The notes under the pieces: model-generated | What the model saw: only the letters and a program-made list of their open reading frames with translations | What the model was told of the DNA's origin: nothing | Database searches by the model: none | Shown: piece after piece, positions 24,063-32,000 of the stretch | How positions within the stretch are numbered: the first letter of the stretch is position 1 | Layout of the letters: the number at the start of each line of letters is the position of its first letter | Source: Methanosphaera stadtmanae DSM 3091 | GTDB taxonomy: Archaea; Methanobacteriota; Methanobacteria; Methanobacteriales; Methanobacteriaceae | DNA length: 32,000 nt | Reading direction: 5' to 3' | NCBI RefSeq assembly: GCF_000012545.1 | Contig: NC_007681.1 | Coordinates: 750,001-782,000 of the forward strand | Made by a program: the position numbers and the translations under genes

Positions 24063-24076
24063 GGAAGTGTATTTCC
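24063..24076. promoter_or_regulatory. NrpR-type nitrogen operator GGAA-N6-TTCC
   Basis: The sequence GGAAgtgtatTTCC is an exact match to the inverted-repeat operator form. A nested outer inverted repeat CGGAA...TTCCG spans 24062-24084. It sits just downstream of the TATA box and upstream of amt-glnK. Confidence 0.6.
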
Positions 24077-24205: not shown

Positions 24206-25429
24206 GTGGTAGCAGAATCGTTACTAAACACAGGTGATACGGCCTGGATACTAATGTCAACGGCATTAGTTATGATTATGACCCTACCAGGGTTAGCATT
24301 ATTTTATGGAGGTATGAGCAAAAATAAAAACGTTCTTAACACAATGTTCTTATCTCTAACCGGTTTTGCCATCGCATCAGTGATTTGGATAGCATATGGA
24401 TACCAATTCACATTTGGATCAACAATCGGCGGATTTATAGGAGCACCAACAAATTTCTTATTAACAGGAATTTCACTTGATATGCTTCATGTAGACACAA
24501 CAATACCTGAATTATTATATGTAGTGTTCCAAGCTACATTTGCAGCAATTACAGTTGCATTAATATCAGGAGCAGTAGTAGGAAGAATGAAAGCAAAAGC
24601 ATGGATGGTTTTTGTAGCATTATGGTTAACATTAGTATATGTCCCAATAGCTCACTGGGTATGGGGTGGAGGATGGTTATTTAACCTTGGTGCATTAGAC
24701 TTTGCAGGAGGAGCAGTAGTACACTTAAACTCAGGTATAGCAGCACTAGCATTAATAACCGTACTTGGACCTAGAAAAGACAGACGTTTATTACCTCACC
24801 ATTTAGGATATGCAGTAATAGGTGCAGCATTATTATGGTTTGGATGGTTTGGATTCAATGCAGGATCAGCTCTTGGAGCAAATGGATTAGCAGCAAATGC
24901 ATTTATAACAACCAACACTGCAGCAGCAATGGCAATGATTGCTTGGATATTATTAGATATCTGGAAAACAGGAAAACCAACAATACTTGGTGCAATAACA
25001 GGTGCAGTAGCAGGACTTGTAGCAATTACACCTGCAGCAGGATTTGTAGATGTACCAGCATCATTAATAATTGGATTTACAACAGTATTTGTATCATACT
25101 TCGGTATATCATACTTAAAACCAAAACTTGGATACGACGATGCATTAGATGCATTTGGAGTACATGGATTATCAGGAACATGGGGAGCAATACTTACAGG
25201 AGTATTTGCATGTCCTGCAATTAATGAAGCAGCAGGTTTATTATATGGTAATCCAAATCAATTAGTAATACAAATAATAAGTATAGTAGCAGTAGCATTA
25301 TACTCATTTATAGTAACTTACATTATTGCTCAAGTACTCGATAAAACAATGGGTATAAGAGTAGATGAACAAACTGAAATAGAAGGTTTAGATGCAAACG
25401 AACATGAAGAAGTAGGTTACAGAATATAA
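24206..25429 (+). CDS. amt: Ammonium transporter
   Basis: [31 protein letters not shown] and AFGVHG signature motifs. GTG start with GGAGGA SD 6 nt upstream. Confidence 0.95.
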
Positions 25430-25447
25430 ACATAAGGATATGATACA

Positions 25448-25786
25448 ATGAAACAAATTACAGCCATATTTAGAAATGAAAGACTAGATGCAGTAAAAGA
25501 TGCACTAGAAAAAATAAACTGTAAAGGAATTACAGTTATGGATGTAAAAGGTAGAGGAGAACAATTAGGAATTGAAGAAAACTATAGAGGAAATAGTTAT
25601 AGAATTGATCTTCTTCCAAAAATAAAAATTGTAACAGTAGTACCTGATAATAATGTTGAAAATGTAATAACAGCAATTACAGAAGCAGCAAAAACAGGTA
25701 ATGTTGGTGATGGAAAAATATTTATTACCAATATAGATGAAGTAGTAAGAATAAGAACAAATGAACGGGGAGACAAAGCTTTGTAA
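25448..25786 (+). CDS. glnK: Nitrogen regulatory protein PII (GlnK), amt-linked
   Basis: 112 aa. T-loop GRGEQLG...YRGNSY and C-terminal TG..GDGKIF motif. It sits 18 bp downstream of amt. Confidence 0.93.
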   Translation: MKQITAIFRNERLDAVKDALEKINCKGITVMDVKGRGEQLGIEENYRGNSYRIDLLPKIKIVTVVPDNNVENVITAITEAAKTGNVGDGKIFITNIDEVVRIRTNERGDKAL

Positions 25787-25794
25787 CTCCCCCT

Positions 25795-25827
25795 AATTTC
25801 CATGATACAATGTATTCATAGGAAATT
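25795..25827 (+). terminator. Imperfect hairpin immediately after glnK
   Basis: AATTTCC+ATGA pairs with TCAT(a)GGAAATT around a 10-nt loop, 9 nt after the glnK stop. No strong T-run follows, so a terminator role is tentative. Confidence 0.35.
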
Positions 25828-26126
25828 AATTGTTTATTTAACTAAATTATATTATTGAAATCTCCTCAATAATCTTCCTCTCCGTTTTAACCTCCCCTTA
25901 TTAATTCAATAAAAAAACATTTATCTAAAACACTAAACACCACTTTTCTTATTTTATTTTTTTTTAAAAGATAATTTAAACTAATTTTATAAAAAGAGTA
26001 AGTACTATTTATTATCCATTTGAATAAAATAAATATAATACTACTAGAGGACTATGACTATTTTTTACACATGGAAGAGTTAAGATTATTCTAAAAATAA
26101 GTATGTATTAAAATATTATTAATTAT

Positions 26127-26170
26127 AAAAAAAAGTTATGGGGGTTATATCTTAGAGAAATTATTCTCTA
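26127..26170 (-). terminator. npdG terminator: hairpin spanning the stop codon plus a T8 run (minus strand)
   Basis: TAGAGAA/TTCTCTA 7-bp stem with a 4-nt loop (26153-26170). An A8 run on the plus strand at 26127-26134 gives T8 on the transcript. Confidence 0.5.
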
Positions 26171-26841
26171 GAAATTCCAGTGATTCTTAATCCACCATAA
26201 TGGGATTTGTATTTTATATTTAATCCAATGAGAAGTGGAGTTATTTTTTCAATCATTCTTGCTTTTTCTAATTTACCACAATCAATACATTCAACACCAG
26301 GTATTTTTTCAATTAATTCAATAGCTATTTTTTTAGCTTCATTATCATTTCCAGCTATTAAACAGTCACAATCTATAGGTTCTGGTATGTTTTCAAGTAA
26401 TGAATTACTTATATTATTAAATGCAGCAATTACTTTAGCATCAGTTTTTTTAAGTATTTTAGCAGTTCTTTCTGCAGCTGAACCTTCCATTAAATCTATG
26501 AATCTTGCAGGTGATCCACCAATTGCAGTTTCAAGAGGAACTGTTGCATCAAGAACTATTTTATCTCCAACAAAATCTTTAATTGATTGTAATGTTGGTT
26601 TTTGTGCTGAAAGAGGAACTGTTAAAATTAATAAGTCACCAGCTTTTGCAGCATCTTCATTTGACATTCCTTCCATTTTAATATTATCATAATCTTTTAA
26701 TAAATCAAGGCATTCTTCTACTTTTGTTAAAGCCTTTTCTTCTTTTCTTGAACCTATAATAACATCTTCTCCAGCTATTGCAAATCTTTTACCAAGATTT
26801 AAACCTTGTGATCCTGTTCCACCAATTATTGATATTTTCAT
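26161..26841 (-). CDS. npdG: F420-dependent NADP oxidoreductase (Fno/NpdG family)
   Basis: The N-terminal string MKISIIGGTGSQGLNLGKRFAIAGEDVIIGSRKEEKA closely matches the Fno N-terminal Rossmann signature. The size is about 225 aa. GAGGT SD lies 7 nt upstream. Confidence 0.87.
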   Translation of the reverse strand: MKISIIGGTGSQGLNLGKRFAIAGEDVIIGSRKEEKALTKVEECLDLLKDYDNIKMEGMSNEDAAKAGDLLILTVPLSAQKPTLQSIKDFVGDKIVLDATVPLETAIGGSPARFIDLMEGSAAERTAKILKKTDAKVIAAFNNISNSLLENIPEPIDCDCLIAGNDNEAKKIAIELIEKIPGVECIDCGKLEKARMIEKITPLLIGLNIKYKSHYGGLRITGISRE

Positions 26842-26886
26842 TTTTATAACCTCATGTATTCTTAATTCATAATAAATTAATAATAA

Positions 26887-26906
26887 TTTATAATGATTTA
26901 TAATGA
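26887..26906. repeat. Tandem 10-bp duplication TTTATAATGA x2 in the npdG upstream region
   Basis: 26887-26896 and 26897-26906 are identical. The duplication lies 46-65 bp upstream of the npdG start on the minus strand, which is plausible promoter territory. Confidence 0.85.
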
Positions 26907-27040
26907 TTAATAATTACTATTAATATATATTTCATCTAATATATAAAATTTGTTAATAATTATATTAAAAAAAATATAAAAATCTATTTTTTTATCATAT
27001 AATTAAAATATAATCTATAAAAAAATAAAAGTATCAATGC

Positions 27041-27391
27041 TTAAATAGCATTAACACCACGTTCACCAGTTCTTATTCTGATAATATCTTCTATATCAGA
27101 GACAAATATTTTACCATCTCCAACATTACCAGTAAAAGCACTACTTTTAATAGTATCAACTATCTTTTCAACTTCAGTCTCAGTAGTAATAATATCTAAT
27201 TTAATTTTAGAAATCAAATCAACATTATATACATTTCCACGATATTTTTCGACAATACCTAATTGTTTGCCTCTACCTTTTACATTACTGACAGTTAAAC
27301 CTTTACAATTAATATTTTCTAAATTATTTTTTACAATATCTAATTTTTCAGGTCTAATAATAGCTTCTACTTTTTTAAACATAAAATTCAT
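27041..27391 (-). CDS. PII-family signal protein linked to the glutamate-synthase-like operon
   Basis: The strings VEAIIRPEKL, T-loop GRGKQLG..KYRGNVY and TGNVGDGKIFV are PII signatures. It lies 14 nt downstream of the FMN subunit stop. The start is possibly the ATG at 27382. Confidence 0.9.
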   Translation of the reverse strand: MNFMFKKVEAIIRPEKLDIVKNNLENINCKGLTVSNVKGRGKQLGIVEKYRGNVYNVDLISKIKLDIITTETEVEKIVDTIKSSAFTGNVGDGKIFVSDIEDIIRIRTGERGVNAI

Positions 27392-27405
27392 CCCATTAAT
27401 TTTTT

Positions 27406-28884
27406 TTATCTAACTAGAGGTATTCCAGTAATTTGTGAAGCTTCCATAGTTAATGAAACTAAATCCTCTTTTTCAAGTTTTTGAATATCAGTATTACCTG
27501 CCTGTTGAGTTAACATTTTAGCCTCAGCAGTCATTGCTTTAATATAATTAGCAACTCTTTGACCACCACGCACTGGATCTAATCTTCTTCTTAACATTCT
27601 ATCCTGTGTAGCAATACCTTTAGGACATTTACCTTTACTACATGCTTTACAAACCTTACATCCAATTGATACTAATGCAGCAGTACCAATATATGTTGCA
27701 TCTGCACCTAATGCTATAGCTTTAGCAACATCAGCACCAGATCTAATACCTCCAGCAGCTACAAGACTTACCTCTGTTCTTAAATTAACTTCTTTAAGGG
27801 CAGTATCTGCTTCCATAATTGCTTGTATTGTAGGAATACCTGAATGTTCTGTAATAACTTCAGGGCCAGCTCCTGTACCACCTTGCATACCATCAATAAC
27901 AATTATATCAGCACCAGCTTTTGCAGCAATTTTAACATCTTGTTCTACACGTCCAGCAGTAAATTTAACAATGATTGGAACTTTCCAATCAGTAATATCA
28001 CGTAATTGATCAATTTTCATTCCTAAATCCTCTGGACCTACAATATCCATGTGTCTTGCAGGACTTAAGGCATCTGTACCTTGTGGAATATTTCTAATTC
28101 TTGCTACTTCTGCTGTAACTTTTTTAGCAAGAAGATGTCCTCCCATTCCAGATTTAGCTCCTTGTCCAATCTTGATTTCAACAGCTTCAGCATTGTTTAA
28201 GTAATTTGCAGACATACCAAATCTTCCAGAAGCATATTGGGCTATTAATTTATCAGCATAATGACGTTCTTCAGGTAACATTCCACCTTCACCAGTATTT
28301 GATGCTGTACCTGCAAGTGTTGCTCCTCTTGCAAAGGAAATTTTAGCTTCTTTACTAATAGCACCAAAAGACATTGCTCCAATCATAATAGGAGTATCAA
28401 TTTTTAATGGATTTTCTGCAAAACGATCACCTAAAACAACTTCAGTTTTACATGGTTCCCTATATGAATCTATAGGAGGACGTGAAACTTGTGCAGGTAA
28501 AATACTTAAATCATCAAATGTTGGAACTATTCTTGTTGCTCCACAACCTCTAACTTTATATGAACCTGTTGAAGATTTACGTTGAATTTCAAGCATTGAT
28601 TGACTAGACCATACACCTCTTCCTTCATATGGAAGGGGAGTTACATAAATTGCATTTGTAGGACACATTTGTTCACATATTTTACATCCTACACAGTTTT
28701 CTTTATGTACTGGTTGTGGTTCATCATTTATTATTTCATAAACATCATGTGGACAGTTAGAATAACAACTGTAACAATTTTTACATAATGATTTTTTTGG
28801 ATTGTCACAGAGATACCAGCAACATCCTGGACGATTATTATTCCTTTTACATATTTCAGATCTTCTTTCTACATTAAAAGGCAT
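27406..28884 (-). CDS. Glutamate synthase FMN-binding (GltB domain 2-like) subunit with an N-terminal 2x[4Fe-4S] ferredoxin region
   Basis: CKNCYSCYSNCP and CVGCKICEQMCP ferredoxin motifs. These are followed by a GltS FMN domain (IMIGAMSFGAIS, NTGEGG, KIGQGAKSGMGGHL, DGMQGGTGA, GGIRSG, CPKGIATQD). Confidence 0.88.
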   Translation of the reverse strand: MPFNVERRSEICKRNNNRPGCCWYLCDNPKKSLCKNCYSCYSNCPHDVYEIINDEPQPVHKENCVGCKICEQMCPTNAIYVTPLPYEGRGVWSSQSMLEIQRKSSTGSYKVRGCGATRIVPTFDDLSILPAQVSRPPIDSYREPCKTEVVLGDRFAENPLKIDTPIMIGAMSFGAISKEAKISFARGATLAGTASNTGEGGMLPEERHYADKLIAQYASGRFGMSANYLNNAEAVEIKIGQGAKSGMGGHLLAKKVTAEVARIRNIPQGTDALSPARHMDIVGPEDLGMKIDQLRDITDWKVPIIVKFTAGRVEQDVKIAAKAGADIIVIDGMQGGTGAGPEVITEHSGIPTIQAIMEADTALKEVNLRTEVSLVAAGGIRSGADVAKAIALGADATYIGTAALVSIGCKVCKACSKGKCPKGIATQDRMLRRRLDPVRGGQRVANYIKAMTAEAKMLTQQAGNTDIQKLEKEDLVSLTMEASQITGIPLVR

Positions 28885-29955
28885 TTAAATCACATCCTCT
28901 TTCAAGTCAATTAATGGTTTGAATACTGGACATACAGAGTATTTTGTTCCAGATGATTTAACAATTTCATCAATATCATCAGTTAATACAGGGTATGGTT
29001 TCCAGGCAAGGTCATCTTTTTTATCTACAACTAAAGCTTTAGTAACAATTTTATTGGATACTAAGTAGTCAAGTATTGTTGTAACAACAACACCATCTTG
29101 TCCATCATAATGTTTTAATGATCTTACTGTCATTATTTTTTTATAATCTCCTAATACTTTAGATGAATCATTTCTAAGTTTTTCAGGAATGAATGTTCTA
29201 GGACATACAGCAAAACAGAAATGACAGTCTTCAGGACATTTTTTACTTTTTCTTGGTTTTGAATCTTTAATTGTTATTAATCCATCAGGACATGCATATT
29301 CACATGCTCCACATAAAACACAAGCTCCAACATCAATAACATTTTTTCTTAGATCTAAGAAATTTGAATTATTTATTTCATCAAGAATAGCATTATCTGA
29401 TATTTCTCTTTGATATAATACTGGTCTTGCATGATATTCACGTTCTTCTATTGTTTCTAAGTTGTTTTGTATTTTTTTATCTGCAATTTTATTTAATAAT
29501 TTTAGTTGGGATTCTGTTAGATCATGAGCTTCAATATATCCCTGACTAATTGCATTATTAATAACATCTTGTCCTTTTTGTGTTCTTATTATGATTGTGG
29601 ACCAGCCATCTTCTGAACCTATGGAACCTATGGATATGTCTGATGTTTCTGATGATAATTCAGCACATATATGACAGTTTTTTCTAACAACTGATTTTGC
29701 AATGGATAATGGTATTTTTTCTAGTTTTCCATTTTTAAGGAAAATAAATGCTTTACCTTTTTCAATTCTAAATTTTTCTATTTCATCCATTGTTATGTTA
29801 TATTCCTTTAATAACTCAGTAAAATAGGAATATGAAAAGTTTTCCATACAGAATAAACCTATTTTAAAGTCAATTACTGATTCTGTATAATGTTGAATTT
29901 TTGATGCTGCCATTATTTCACATGGAGTTCCAACCATTGCTACTTTTTGATTCAT
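28885..29955 (-). CDS. FrhB/FdhB-family (F420-interacting) iron-sulfur flavoprotein-like subunit, domain order permuted
   Basis: aa 5-140 match the FrhB C-terminal domain (GTPCE, GLFCMENF, CHICAELSSETSDISIGSIGSEDGWST). aa 212-251 carry two Cys clusters (CVLCGACEYACP, CPEDCHFCFAVCP). aa 268-345 match the FrhB N-terminal domain (LGDYKKIMTVRS, GQDGVVVT, GTKYSVCP). The start overlaps the upstream stop (ATGA). Confidence 0.85.
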   Translation of the reverse strand: MNQKVAMVGTPCEIMAASKIQHYTESVIDFKIGLFCMENFSYSYFTELLKEYNITMDEIEKFRIEKGKAFIFLKNGKLEKIPLSIAKSVVRKNCHICAELSSETSDISIGSIGSEDGWSTIIIRTQKGQDVINNAISQGYIEAHDLTESQLKLLNKIADKKIQNNLETIEEREYHARPVLYQREISDNAILDEINNSNFLDLRKNVIDVGACVLCGACEYACPDGLITIKDSKPRKSKKCPEDCHFCFAVCPRTFIPEKLRNDSSKVLGDYKKIMTVRSLKHYDGQDGVVVTTILDYLVSNKIVTKALVVDKKDDLAWKPYPVLTDDIDEIVKSSGTKYSVCPVFKPLIDLKEDVI

Positions 29956-30632
29956 TTTTTACCCCCTGATTCAGTTTTAGTTTCACCATTAGTTATTTTT
30001 TTAAAGTTAGTATAATCTATATCACTTAATTCAAAGCCATATTTTGTTAATACTTCTTTTAATTCATTTTGGTCATCAAGGGTTGTGTGTTTTAGTACTG
30101 CTTTTTTACCTAGACTTTTTACTTGACCTAGTACATAGATTGTTCCACGCATAATGGATTCACCAGCATCATCTGTCACATCACCTAGAACTATAAGTCT
30201 TCCACCCATCATAAGAAGTCCAGTCATGAAGCCACTATTACCACCTATAATGACTGTTCCACCTTTCATGATTTCTCCAGTTCTTGAACCAGTATCTCCT
30301 TTTACAACTACAGTTCCATTATAAATTCCTTGTCCTGCACCATCACCAGATCCTCCTTCGATAATTAATTCTCCACCAGTCATATTATCTCCAGCAAACC
30401 ATCCAGCATTTCTAGTAATATGTATTTTTGCTCCATCTACCATGGTACCAACGAAGTATCCAGCAGATCCAACAATTTCTATTTCTACTTCTTCTATTAG
30501 TCCTGCTGCAATGTTGTGTTTAGATTGTGGATTTTTTATAATTAATTTATCATAATCTAGTGCATGTTCTTTTATGGATCTATTTAATGTTTTTTCATCC
30601 ATATCTTTAGCATCAATTGTATATTCTCTCAT
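29952..30632 (-). CDS. Glutamate synthase GXGXG (GltB domain 3-like) subunit
   Basis: Repeated GXGXG beta-helix motifs (GSAGYFVG, GGSGDGAGQG, GDTGSRTG, GGNSGFMTG). GGGAG SD upstream. Confidence 0.88.
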   Translation of the reverse strand: MREYTIDAKDMDEKTLNRSIKEHALDYDKLIIKNPQSKHNIAAGLIEEVEIEIVGSAGYFVGTMVDGAKIHITRNAGWFAGDNMTGGELIIEGGSGDGAGQGIYNGTVVVKGDTGSRTGEIMKGGTVIIGGNSGFMTGLLMMGGRLIVLGDVTDDAGESIMRGTIYVLGQVKSLGKKAVLKHTTLDDQNELKEVLTKYGFELSDIDYTNFKKITNGETKTESGGKK

Positions 30633-30650
30633 ATAATATTACTCCCTAAA

Positions 30651-31568
30651 TTATATTGTATAAGATCTTGTTTCACCCGGTGCTATTTGTTCTACATGGT
30701 CTGTATCTAGTACATCTTGTAGGGACATTTCTTCTGAAGCTATTGCAAACACATCATCATTTTCTGCCATTACTCCAGGTCTTAATCCTAATTTATCCTT
30801 AGCTATACCAATACCATTTGGAGTTCCAACAAGTATTGAGAATGGTCCATCTAAATCATGCACTGCTTCTTCTAATGCTTCTTCTAATTTATATCCTTGA
30901 TGTAATTTATCTGCCATGTAATGTACTATACATTCTGTATCATTGAATGATTCAAATTTATGTCCTTTTCTTTCAAGTGGATCTCTTATTTTCCAATAAT
31001 TTGTTATTTGTCCATTGTGTACTACTGTTATATCAGGTGTTATGTAACTTTGATATGGGTGTGCATGATATCTATCCACACCACTTTCTGTAGCAAATCT
31101 AGTATGTCCTATACCATGAGTTCCTACTCTTGAAGGTACGTTGTAACGTTTTGCAATGTCTTTTACAAGTCCAACATCTTTTATCATTTCAAATGAATGT
31201 GAACCATTTATTACTTGTATATCTTCTATTTTATCGAGATTTGTAATTAATGGTTTTAGTAATGAATAGTTTTCTAGATGTATTTCACATCTATATACAT
31301 CATAGTCATCTACAGAATGAATTAATTCTTCATTGTATATTGGACTAATCTGAGTTAAAGTTGTTTTGAGTTGATCAAGCAACATTGGTTTATTTTTTAA
31401 TTCTATATTTAGTTGATAATTATTTTCTGGAAGATTTAATCCACCATATATAGCAAAACCAGCAGAATCTGGTCCTCTATGTTGAAGAGATTCTAACATA
31501 GCAGTTAATGATTCTCCAACATTATGTGTTTTTTTATCTTTATATATTACTCCTGCTATACCACACAT
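30651..31568 (-). CDS. Class II (Ntn) glutamine amidotransferase subunit (GltB domain 1-like)
   Basis: The N-terminal MCGIAGV (catalytic Cys2), HRGPDSAG and HTRFATES are class II GATase signatures. The start overlaps the pdxT 3' end by 13 nt. Confidence 0.85.
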   Translation of the reverse strand: MCGIAGVIYKDKKTHNVGESLTAMLESLQHRGPDSAGFAIYGGLNLPENNYQLNIELKNKPMLLDQLKTTLTQISPIYNEELIHSVDDYDVYRCEIHLENYSLLKPLITNLDKIEDIQVINGSHSFEMIKDVGLVKDIAKRYNVPSRVGTHGIGHTRFATESGVDRYHAHPYQSYITPDITVVHNGQITNYWKIRDPLERKGHKFESFNDTECIVHYMADKLHQGYKLEEALEEAVHDLDGPFSILVGTPNGIGIAKDKLGLRPGVMAENDDVFAIASEEMSLQDVLDTDHVEQIAPGETRSYTI

Positions 31569-32000
31569 GATTCTACCTCTAATATAAATAATTTATGAAT
31601 TAATGTATCTTCAGTTAATTCAGGATGGAATGCTATTCCAATGTACTGATTTTGTTTAACTGCAATTATTTTATCATCATATTTACTTAATACTTCTACA
31701 TCATCACTAATTTGACTTATGTATGGAGCTCTGATAAATATTCCATGATAATCTTCATTATTGAATTTAATTTCTGATTCAAATGACATTCTTTGTCTTC
31801 CAAATCCATTTCTTTTTACTGTTGAATCTATTAATCCAAGTAATGGTTGGTCTTGGTCAGTTTTTTTGGAAAGTAGTACTAATCCTGCACAAGTACCTAA
31901 TATAGGTATTCCAGTTTCTTTAAGGTAATTAGAAAGTCCAGTTTTTTCTAGATGCATACCTATTGTGGAACTTTCTCCACCAGATATAATTAATCCATTA
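31556..32000 (-). CDS. pdxT: Pyridoxal 5'-phosphate synthase glutaminase subunit PdxT (N-terminus outside the window)
   Basis: The frame is open upstream of the listed ATG to the window edge and reads LIISGGESSTIG. GTCAG (catalytic Cys) and AFHPELT motifs are present. Confidence 0.88.
   Translation of the reverse strand, partial: NGLIISGGESSTIGMHLEKTGLSNYLKETGIPILGTCAGLVLLSKKTDQDQPLLGLIDSTVKRNGFGRQRMSFESEIKFNNEDYHGIFIRAPYISQISDDVEVLSKYDDKIIAVKQNQYIGIAFHPELTEDTLIHKLFILEVESCVV

Follow-up and report, generated by a model that had tools for sequence, protein, structure and literature searches.

The window analysed here, a stretch of 32,000 nucleotides from Methanosphaera stadtmanae DSM 3091 (NC_007681.1, positions 750,001 to 782,000 of the forward strand), carries on its minus strand an operon that most likely encodes a split GltB-type glutamate synthase (GOGAT) with an embedded FrhB-family gene that would supply the electrons. 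Judged from sequence, the probability is about 0.6 that this locus encodes the M. stadtmanae GOGAT, in a split archaeal form that draws on reduced coenzyme F420 (F420H2) as donor via its FrhB-like subunit. GOGAT performs the obligatory second step of ammonium assimilation, and its electron donor in methanogens has never been demonstrated. It is in the operon of the Methanobacteriaceae that the genomic case for F420H2 is clearest, since a 0-nt junction ties the FrhB-like gene into it. Because M. stadtmanae and Methanobrevibacter live in gut and rumen, the enzyme would connect the methane-related metabolism of F420 with the assimilation of nitrogen in these methanogens.

The concept, the gene family and the domain swap described below are already known, having been published in 2011–2013, and the core proposal of the initial annotation of this DNA is a published hypothesis. 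An F420-dependent GOGAT was put forward for the orthologous Methanothermobacter gene, with "subunit 4" formerly annotated as FrhB, by Kaster et al. (2011), who also cite activity work on Methanosarcina barkeri. Susanti and Mukhopadhyay (2012) distinguished FGltS(I) from FGltS(II), the type found in Methanothermobacter; the M. marburgensis orthologue was aligned with FrhB by Mills et al. (2013), whose Fig. 9 legend gives the swapped domain order; and FGltS and Pfor-linked FrhB paralogues appear in the tree of Chadwick et al. (2022). Papers of 2022, 2024 and July 2026 still call the enzyme "putative", and a literature search returned no published glutamate-formation assay for this enzyme type. 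The literature up to July 2026 thus agrees with the initial annotation that such enzymes had been proposed from genomics and lacked biochemical characterisation. Its proposal of an F420H2-driven GOGAT gains from the split operon, the conserved FrhB-like gene and the F420-proximal motifs, although the idea is not new and the donor is only inferred. The M. stadtmanae window contributes little beyond this, namely a PII gene specific to the lineage and Fno as a neighbour.

Operon structure, conservation and catalytic core

A six-frame listing of open reading frames (ORFs) in the window reproduces all ORF coordinates of the initial annotation exactly. The order of transcription on the minus strand is pdxT, class-II amidotransferase, GXGXG protein, FrhB-like protein, ferredoxin plus flavin mononucleotide (FMN) subunit, PII and then npdG/Fno. 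Domains were called with Pfam and NCBIfam searches against curated cut-offs, which the diagnostic domains exceed by a wide margin, and the four genes at the centre of this order are as follows.

30651–31568, minus strand: class-II (N-terminal nucleophile, Ntn) glutamine amidotransferase subunit, 305 aa (GATase_7, 62.8 bits; GATase_6, 61.4 bits)
29952–30632, minus strand: GXGXG-domain subunit, 226 aa, equivalent of the GltB C-terminal domain (PF01493, 100.2 bits)
28885–29955, minus strand: FrhB-family subunit, 356 aa (FrhB_FdhB_C, 158.8 bits; FrhB_FdhB_N, 64.6 bits; two-cluster ferredoxin motif)
27406–28884, minus strand: ferredoxin plus FMN (GltB synthase-domain) subunit, 492 aa (PF01645 Glu_synthase, 433.6 bits; N-terminal Fer4 pair)

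Read base by base, the junctions are tight. An 18-nt gap containing AGGGAG separates the amidotransferase and GXGXG genes, the GXGXG and FrhB-like genes share an ATGA overlap at 29952–29955, and the TAA of the FrhB-like gene is followed directly by the ATG of the FMN subunit gene (0-nt gap at 28885/28884), with GAGGATGTGA preceding that ATG. The FrhB-like protein is identical to ABC57066.1 and the FMN subunit to ABC57065.1. No GltD-like ORF is present among the nine ORFs at 24206–32000 and the ten larger upstream ORFs of the window, a profile scan that took in window ORFs only and did not include the remaining upstream ORFs or the rest of the genome. ORFs, domain profiles and junctions bear out the earlier description of three GltB domains as separate minus-strand genes with an FrhB-like gene inserted, of the ATGA overlap at 29952–29955, of the 0-nt gap at 28884/28885, and of a 14-nt gap before and a 199-bp spacer after the PII gene; the lack of a GltD-like small subunit also holds for the ORFs scanned. 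All genes listed by the initial annotation are right. Two points need correcting: pdxT, too, belongs to the overlapping string, and the FrhB-like protein has a swapped domain order, which the initial annotation left unmentioned.

The arrangement was followed in a census that scanned one genome per species and kept 80 loci, all from Methanobacteriaceae; it did not reach Methanococcales and Methanomicrobia. When the window proteins are mapped onto these loci, the order amidotransferase, GXGXG, FrhB-like, FMN subunit occurs on one strand in ~72 of the 80. In 43 of 68 loci the FrhB-like stop directly abuts the FMN subunit start (0 nt), and none of the 68 has more than 17 nt between the two; the GXGXG and FrhB-like genes lie ≤25 nt apart in 62 of 71. 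Gene order and conserved tight junctions together argue that the arrangement is more than chance, and the spacing of the FrhB-like gene and the GltB-domain genes is the pattern of subunits that would be made in fixed proportion. The initial annotation had regarded a failure of the FrhB-like gene to be conserved beside GltB-domain genes as fatal to its proposal; the gene is so placed in ~72 of the 80 loci.

All three GltB modules are recognisable in the catalytic core. The amidotransferase begins MCGIAG, which places a Cys directly after the initiator Met at the position of the class-II catalytic Cys1, and its translation contains HNGQITN and DTE motifs. Its GATase_7 and GATase_6 matches clear their cut-offs. 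It scores 19.2 bits against the GltB-type GATase_2 model, just below the cut-off of 19.9, and the nearest solved chains in a Protein Data Bank (PDB) search are PurF and GlmS. The GXGXG domain exceeds its cut-off of 32.5 bits more than threefold (100.2) as a separate protein. In the FMN subunit, Glu_synthase scores 433.6 bits against a cut-off of 20.4, and ~300 residues align to solved GltB chains (E 1e-45 to 1e-50), including residues 860–1158 of Bacillus subtilis GltA (7mfm_G). The NCBIfam GOGAT large-subunit model gives 204.8 against a cut-off of 1047 bits, as expected for a fragment. Searches with the FMN subunit and the amidotransferase found no split GOGAT among PDB structures.

The FMN subunit carries two further cysteine-rich elements.

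28636–28794, minus strand: 2x[4Fe-4S] ferredoxin domain near the N-terminus, aa 31–83 of the FMN subunit (Fer4 families; CxxCxxCxxxC at aa 34 and aa 64)
27625–27660, minus strand: four-Cys motif CKVCKACSKGKC, aa 409–420 of the FMN subunit, aligned to GCVMMRACHLDTCP of 7mfm_G, the bacterial GltB [3Fe-4S] site

Both N-terminal CxxCxxCxxxC motifs are present in 66 of 66 homologues, all from Methanobacteriaceae. In bacterial and plant glutamate synthases, a Cx5Cx4CP motif next to FMN binds a [3Fe-4S] cluster. Its three cysteines are found at the aligned positions of the FMN subunit, and an extra fourth Cys turns the motif into CxxCxxCxxxxC in the same 66 homologues. Since the extra residue occupies the position of the missing fourth ligand of a ferredoxin motif, the FMN-adjacent cluster is predicted to be [4Fe-4S]. 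Four more cysteines (C12, C21, C22 and C26; aa 12–26, window 28807–28851, minus strand) lie ahead of the ferredoxin motifs.

The FrhB-like subunit and the proposed electron path

The FrhB-like protein contains the familiar domains of its family in an unfamiliar order.

29443–29949, minus strand: FrhB "C-terminal" domain, placed first, aa 3–171 (Cys12/36/94/97; IEKGK, aa 64–68; DISIGSIGS, aa 106–114)
29179–29367, minus strand: inserted 2x[4Fe-4S] ferredoxin domain, aa 197–259 (Fer4 matches; Cys212/215/218/222 and Cys240/244/247/251)
28912–29112, minus strand: FrhB "N-terminal" domain, placed last, aa 282–348 (PF04422, 64.6 bits; QDG motif, aa 286–288)

Pfam, with both FrhB domains above their cut-offs, sets the bounds at aa 3–148 for the C domain, aa 205–255 for the two-cluster ferredoxin motif and aa 282–348 for the N domain. 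The nearest solved relatives are all F420-reactive modules (E 1e-35 to 1e-51), among them 8riu_B and 8rja_E, the F420-reducing modules of the CO dehydrogenase and formylmethanofuran dehydrogenase of an ethanotroph. To these two chains the protein aligns in two pieces in swapped order, query 197–345 to chain 7–164 and query 3–171 to chain 176–348. On this alignment it is a circular permutation, C–ferredoxin–N (C-Fd-N), of the Fd-N-C architecture, and thus a permuted FrhB-family member that departs from the canonical order. The ferredoxin insert finds its best match in the C-terminal ferredoxin domain of FrhG (6qgr_G 173–232, E 1e-7). An exhaustive search of cluster representatives recovered ~14 clusters that are colinear with the protein and so share the permuted order; the bulk aligns in two pieces and has the canonical order. 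The permutation was considered as a new finding and rejected as such, the swap being given already for the M. marburgensis orthologue in the Fig. 9 legend of Mills et al. (2013); the literature search found no paper that pairs "FrhB" with "circular permutation".

An AlphaFold2 model of the protein is compact and confident (pLDDT 91.1, pTM 0.91). Foldseek superposes ~180 of its residues on FrhB chains at 1.6–2.2 Å with a TM score of ~0.46, which corresponds to half of the protein; as a sequence-order aligner, it can align only about half of a permuted model, so this superposition does not bear on the relative placement of the halves.

Cofactor motifs are retained despite the altered order. The F420-proximal elements of the family (the IGKGK turn and the small-residue loop with S209/V210, which lies in the longest conserved stretch) and the cluster ligands Cys104/134/192/195 were defined on the Frh structure (Mills et al., 2013). 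Alignments to 6qgr_B and 9r51_B place Cys12/36/94/97 of the FrhB-like protein on those four ligands, and across the permuted clade these residues and the eight ferredoxin cysteines show little or no variation. IEKGK aligns with the IGKGK/ITKGK turn next to F420, and DISIGSIGSEDGWST aligns with FrhB DISTGSVGS, the loop that carries S209/V210 beside the F420 ring. The QDG motif is likewise invariant or nearly so, with Q286 and G288 invariant. The FrhB-fold enzyme HCAR, which depends on ferredoxin, is more distant (14–15% identity). The FrhB-like subunit is predicted to be an electron-input module with FAD and 3x[4Fe-4S].

Distant permuted relatives (30–38% identity; L081 868–1995, L082 6001–7035, L085 6001–7092, L087 2066–3166 and L088 55–1518) lie directly upstream of other redox enzymes. 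Such relatives head archaeal pyruvate synthase operons (por gamma/delta/alpha/beta), where the neighbouring PorA scores 568 bits against a cut-off of 550, and one adjoins a gene for the dihydropyrimidine-dehydrogenase subunit PreA (429 bits against 335); one further relative is found at a polyferredoxin/NapD cluster and one next to mtd. PreT, the usual partner of PreA, is a GltD homologue. A permuted relative beside PreA therefore suggests that an FrhB-type subunit has taken the place of a GltD-type subunit in two enzyme families, which supports a role in electron input or output, and the permuted module seems to be a plug-in electron unit of general use. A stand-alone permuted paralogue (45–50% identity) is also present in some Methanobrevibacter (L066 7893–9083 and L079 7992–9101; also L060, L073, L077, L078 and L080); it has no GOGAT or other redox genes nearby, and an RNase_H_2 protein, a methyltransferase-like protein and a peptidase are among those encoded around it.

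The gene set, its order and coupling, its conservation and the retained motifs suggest how the four proteins might work as a complex. The 305-aa Ntn amidotransferase would hydrolyse glutamine and pass ammonia to the FMN subunit, where 2-oxoglutarate would become 2-iminoglutarate and undergo reduction; the GXGXG protein would take the structural role of the GltB C-terminal domain. The permuted FrhB-family protein would replace GltD and accept hydride from F420H2 on its FAD. Electrons could then run one at a time from the [4Fe-4S] cluster of this subunit to its two ferredoxin clusters, on to the two N-terminal clusters of the FMN subunit, the FMN-adjacent cluster and FMN, and finally to 2-iminoglutarate.

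Several observations weigh against F420H2 as the donor or against the assignment as a whole. Membership of the FrhB family is no guarantee of F420 use: HCAR uses ferredoxin, and Thermococcus onnurineus Frh is reported to reduce rubredoxin. The FMN subunit's N-terminal ferredoxin domain, kept in every homologue, could itself take electrons from soluble ferredoxin, and the permuted clade is also attached to ferredoxin-dependent pyruvate synthase. In M. maripaludis, transposon sequencing found three GltB-domain genes essential; they were treated as GOGAT with no small subunit identified, and this three-gene core has neither an adjacent FrhB-like gene nor a recognised electron-input subunit. The amidotransferase scores higher on PurF/GlmS-type models than on the GltB-type GATase_2, an F420-dependent GOGAT is absent from a 2021 review of F420, and the literature offers no biochemical or structural proof of what remains a putative enzyme. 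Ferredoxin is the main rival donor to F420H2. A GOGAT complex that receives reduced ferredoxin, or another carrier, through its ferredoxin domains, with the FrhB-like protein using some other substrate or, by a side route, connecting the clusters with the F420 pool, is nevertheless distinctly less probable: the IxKGK turn and the DISxGSxGS loop are conserved, the closest relatives of the FrhB-like protein are all F420-reactive, and translational coupling to the FMN gene throughout the family would be costly for a dispensable side path. It is very improbable that the four proteins form an amidotransferase-flavoenzyme other than GOGAT, with a GltB-like scaffold serving a different glutamine-dependent reductive amination. 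The leaning of the amidotransferase towards PurF and GlmS, the fragment-like score on the large-subunit model and an activity that is so far predicted only would suit such an enzyme. The Glu_synthase match with its long alignment to solved GltB argues against it, as do the joint presence of all three GltB modules beside the nitrogen genes amt and glnK and NrpR operators, and the essential M. maripaludis homologues treated as GOGAT. An F420H2-dependent GOGAT is thus the preferred reading of the locus.

Neighbouring genes and nitrogen context

The operon is flanked by further minus-strand genes and faces a convergent ammonium transporter locus.

31556–32000, minus strand: pdxT, glutaminase subunit of pyridoxal phosphate synthase (SNO, 128.5 bits; TIGR03800, 140.1 bits against a cut-off of 105.55)
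27041–27391, minus strand: PII protein, GlnK-family paralogue, 116 aa, here called PIIa (PF00543 P-II, 98.7 bits)
27019–27058, minus strand: terminator-like hairpin across the PII stop codon, 12-pair stem followed by the T-run TTTTATTTTTTT
26161–26841, minus strand: npdG/Fno, F420H2:NADP oxidoreductase, 226 aa (TIGR01915, 249.1 bits against a cut-off of 149.8; positions 1–220 of 220 matched)
24206–25786, plus strand: convergent amt-glnK pair, Amt at 24206–25429 (Ammonium_transp, 432.1 bits) and PIIb at 25448–25786 (P-II, 102.7 bits)
24063–24076, plus strand: GGAAGTGTATTTCC, an NrpR operator match (consensus GGAA-N6-TTCC) that lies 130 nt upstream of amt and is the only one in the window

The 5' end of pdxT lies beyond the window edge; its full length, read in M. 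stadtmanae DNA that extends past this edge (L089), is 192 aa. It overlaps the amidotransferase gene by 13 nt (31556–31568), an overlap kept in 29 of the 33 loci with pdxT in this place, which belong to Methanobacterium and to some of the Methanosphaera lineage, and it is proposed to belong to the same transcription unit as the GOGAT operon. Most Methanobrevibacter have no pdxT upstream of the operon.

At the other end, PIIa begins 14 nt after the FMN subunit gene if the first ATG is used and 23 nt after it at the GenBank-annotated start. The start is ambiguous within 27382–27391 (minus strand): the longer form has 116 aa (MNFMFKK...), and a 113-aa form (MFKK...), identical to ABC57064.1, is found there and in most cluster members. 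The 113-aa form, which starts at 27382, is favoured by a GGGATGA site ahead of the second ATG. In all likelihood PIIa is co-transcribed with the operon, because no T-run occurs between it and the FMN subunit gene, and the hairpin and T-run that follow it likely mark the operon end.

A PII gene stands directly 3' of the FMN subunit gene in only 5 of the ~66 other loci that include the 3' end of the operon, all of the Methanosphaera lineage (L011, L020, L035, L039 and L041; gaps of 9–77 nt). At the same position, most Methanobrevibacter have no PII gene and Methanobacterium has two same-strand amt-PII pairs. PIIa is 54% identical to the amt-linked PIIb 1.3 kb away and retains the generic PII motifs (T-loop YRG, TGNVGDGKIF and RIRTGE). 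The linkage to amt that defines the GlnK subtype is absent from PIIa; PIIb does follow amt. A neighbour-joining tree of 58 PII sequences, weak in that it rests on ~110 residues and has no bootstrap, places PIIa in its own clade as sister to the amt-linked PIIb of the same lineage and apart from both Methanobacterium clades. PIIa was also considered as an orphaned GlnK1, left behind after loss of amt1 from the FMN-amt-PII-amt-PII order of Methanobacterium, and this was rejected on the tree, itself weak, which sets PIIa beside PIIb instead. LPK at the base of the T-loop (PIIa residues ~58–64) is changed to I-[S/T/N]-K in PIIa and four of its five orthologues and is IPK in that of L039; the Pro is kept in the amt-linked PII copies and in E. 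coli GlnB.

Most simply, PIIa would be a lineage-specific GlnK paralogue that reports 2-oxoglutarate/ATP status. Fno, in turn, is probably its own transcription unit and a separate housekeeping gene: it has a GAGGT ribosome-binding site before its ATG, the 199-nt spacer that separates it from PII is AT-rich, and it follows PII in only three other loci, all among the five PII-bearing ones. According to the 2021 F420 review, Fno is a general NADP-reducing enzyme present in all methanogen orders. The initial annotation had gone further, proposing a dedicated PII protein that senses GOGAT activity or assembly, and a neighbouring Fno that keeps the pools of F420 and NADP in balance. The close placement of PIIa after the FMN gene with no terminator between, its retention in five other species of the lineage, a clade of its own distinct from PIIb, the altered T-loop base and the presence of Fno in three of the PII-bearing loci would all fit such a scheme. 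A regulator that binds GOGAT together with a functionally coupled Fno is unlikely, however, since the PII adjacency is confined to one lineage, PIIa looks like an ordinary GlnK paralogue with every generic motif, no PII-GOGAT interaction is described in the 15 titles and abstracts that a literature search gave, and Fno, a general methanogen NADP reductase, lies behind a hairpin, a T-run and a spacer with its own ribosome-binding site. Adjacency by itself gives PIIa no standing as a GOGAT sensor, and nothing points to a dedicated pool-balancing role for Fno. Taken by itself, the idea that the Methanosphaera lineage recruited PIIa as an integral regulator, one that would bind the F420-type GOGAT and adjust it to 2-oxoglutarate/ATP status, is similarly unlikely; if true, PIIa-GOGAT binding would be a direct PII-GOGAT control point.

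Of 67 related loci, 22 carry an NrpR operator upstream of the GOGAT operon, the background being 0.145 matches per kb; amt has one upstream in 34 of 50 cases. In four loci of the Methanosphaera lineage (L033, L034, L036 and L041) the operator stands ~40 nt before the amidotransferase gene; in M. stadtmanae, pdxT occupies the place that the operator has in these closest operator-bearing relatives. The 445-bp AT-rich region upstream of M. stadtmanae pdxT (L089 3990–4434) contains no NrpR operator, even with one mismatch. NrpR control of the M. stadtmanae operon was rejected on this account despite the enrichment in relatives, and nitrogen control of the operon is not evident from its sequence. 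In Methanobacterium (L042–L072, ~10.8–15.6 kb in the loci) the pdxT-GOGAT operon is joined by the two same-strand amt-PII pairs, often with NrpR operators, an arrangement that amounts to a nitrogen-assimilation supercluster. The Methanosphaera lineage has a rearranged supercluster, with PII after the operon, then Fno and then an inverted amt-PII pair.

An Rfam scan of 25700–32000 gave no matches. A sigma-70 promoter scan found 45 sites against 41.5 expected, hence no enrichment, under a model that is inapplicable to an archaeon. Elsewhere in the window a protein with pseudomurein-binding repeats is encoded, consistent with Methanobacteriales.

Comparison with known systems

The bacterial NADPH-GOGAT (GltB-GltD; Azospirillum 2vdc, B. 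subtilis 7mfm) has the same chemistry, as predicted here from genes alone, and the same Ntn amidotransferase, FMN and GXGXG modules. The logic is also shared, in that a separate flavin/Fe-S subunit feeds the cluster beside FMN, and the bacterial route from NADPH through FAD (GltD), 2x[4Fe-4S], [3Fe-4S] and FMN is mirrored by the path proposed for M. stadtmanae. In contrast to the bacterial enzyme, the M. stadtmanae modules are separate polypeptides, the GltB central domain is missing and an FrhB-family protein takes the place of GltD. The FMN subunit also has an extra N-terminal two-cluster ferredoxin domain and a four-Cys instead of a three-Cys motif.

The FrhB-like subunit is built from the same blocks (two-cluster ferredoxin, FrhB_N and FrhB_C) as the N-terminal part of Fsr (Fsr-N; 7np8/7npa), FpoF/FqoF, 8riu_B and 8rja_E. 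Like them, it has a four-Cys cluster of non-canonical type and would serve as a plug-in that connects F420 to an Fe-S wire. Whereas Fsr-N, FpoF and 8riu_B have the order Fd-N-C, the M. stadtmanae protein is C-Fd-N, with its new N-terminus at the boundary of the N and C domains. The FGltS(I) of Methanococcales and the "FrhB10" clusters of anaerobic methanotrophic (ANME) archaea have the same proposed function, electron input to a split GOGAT by an FrhB-family protein, although they and FGltS(II) draw on different FrhB clades. FGltS(I)-alpha falls with FpoF/aFsr-beta and keeps the canonical order; FGltS(II)-alpha is placed with FrhB but "departs significantly" in sequence.

PIIa resembles the PII proteins of methanogen GlnK-AmtB pairs in its YRG, TGxxGDGKIF and RIRT motifs and differs from them in its position at the 3' end of a GOGAT operon, the absence of an adjoining amt and its restriction to the Methanosphaera lineage. 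The closest counterpart of the whole locus is the putative F420-GOGAT of Methanothermobacter (MTH193/MTBMA_c06440 "subunit 4"; FGltS(II)), in which an FrhB homologue is likewise embedded among split GltB-domain genes and has the same swapped domain order; the M. stadtmanae FrhB-like protein corresponds to FGltS(II)-alpha. Relative to that system, the M. stadtmanae lineage has two further genes, PII immediately behind the operon and then Fno, and M. stadtmanae itself is without the NrpR operator that its sister species carry upstream of the GOGAT operon.

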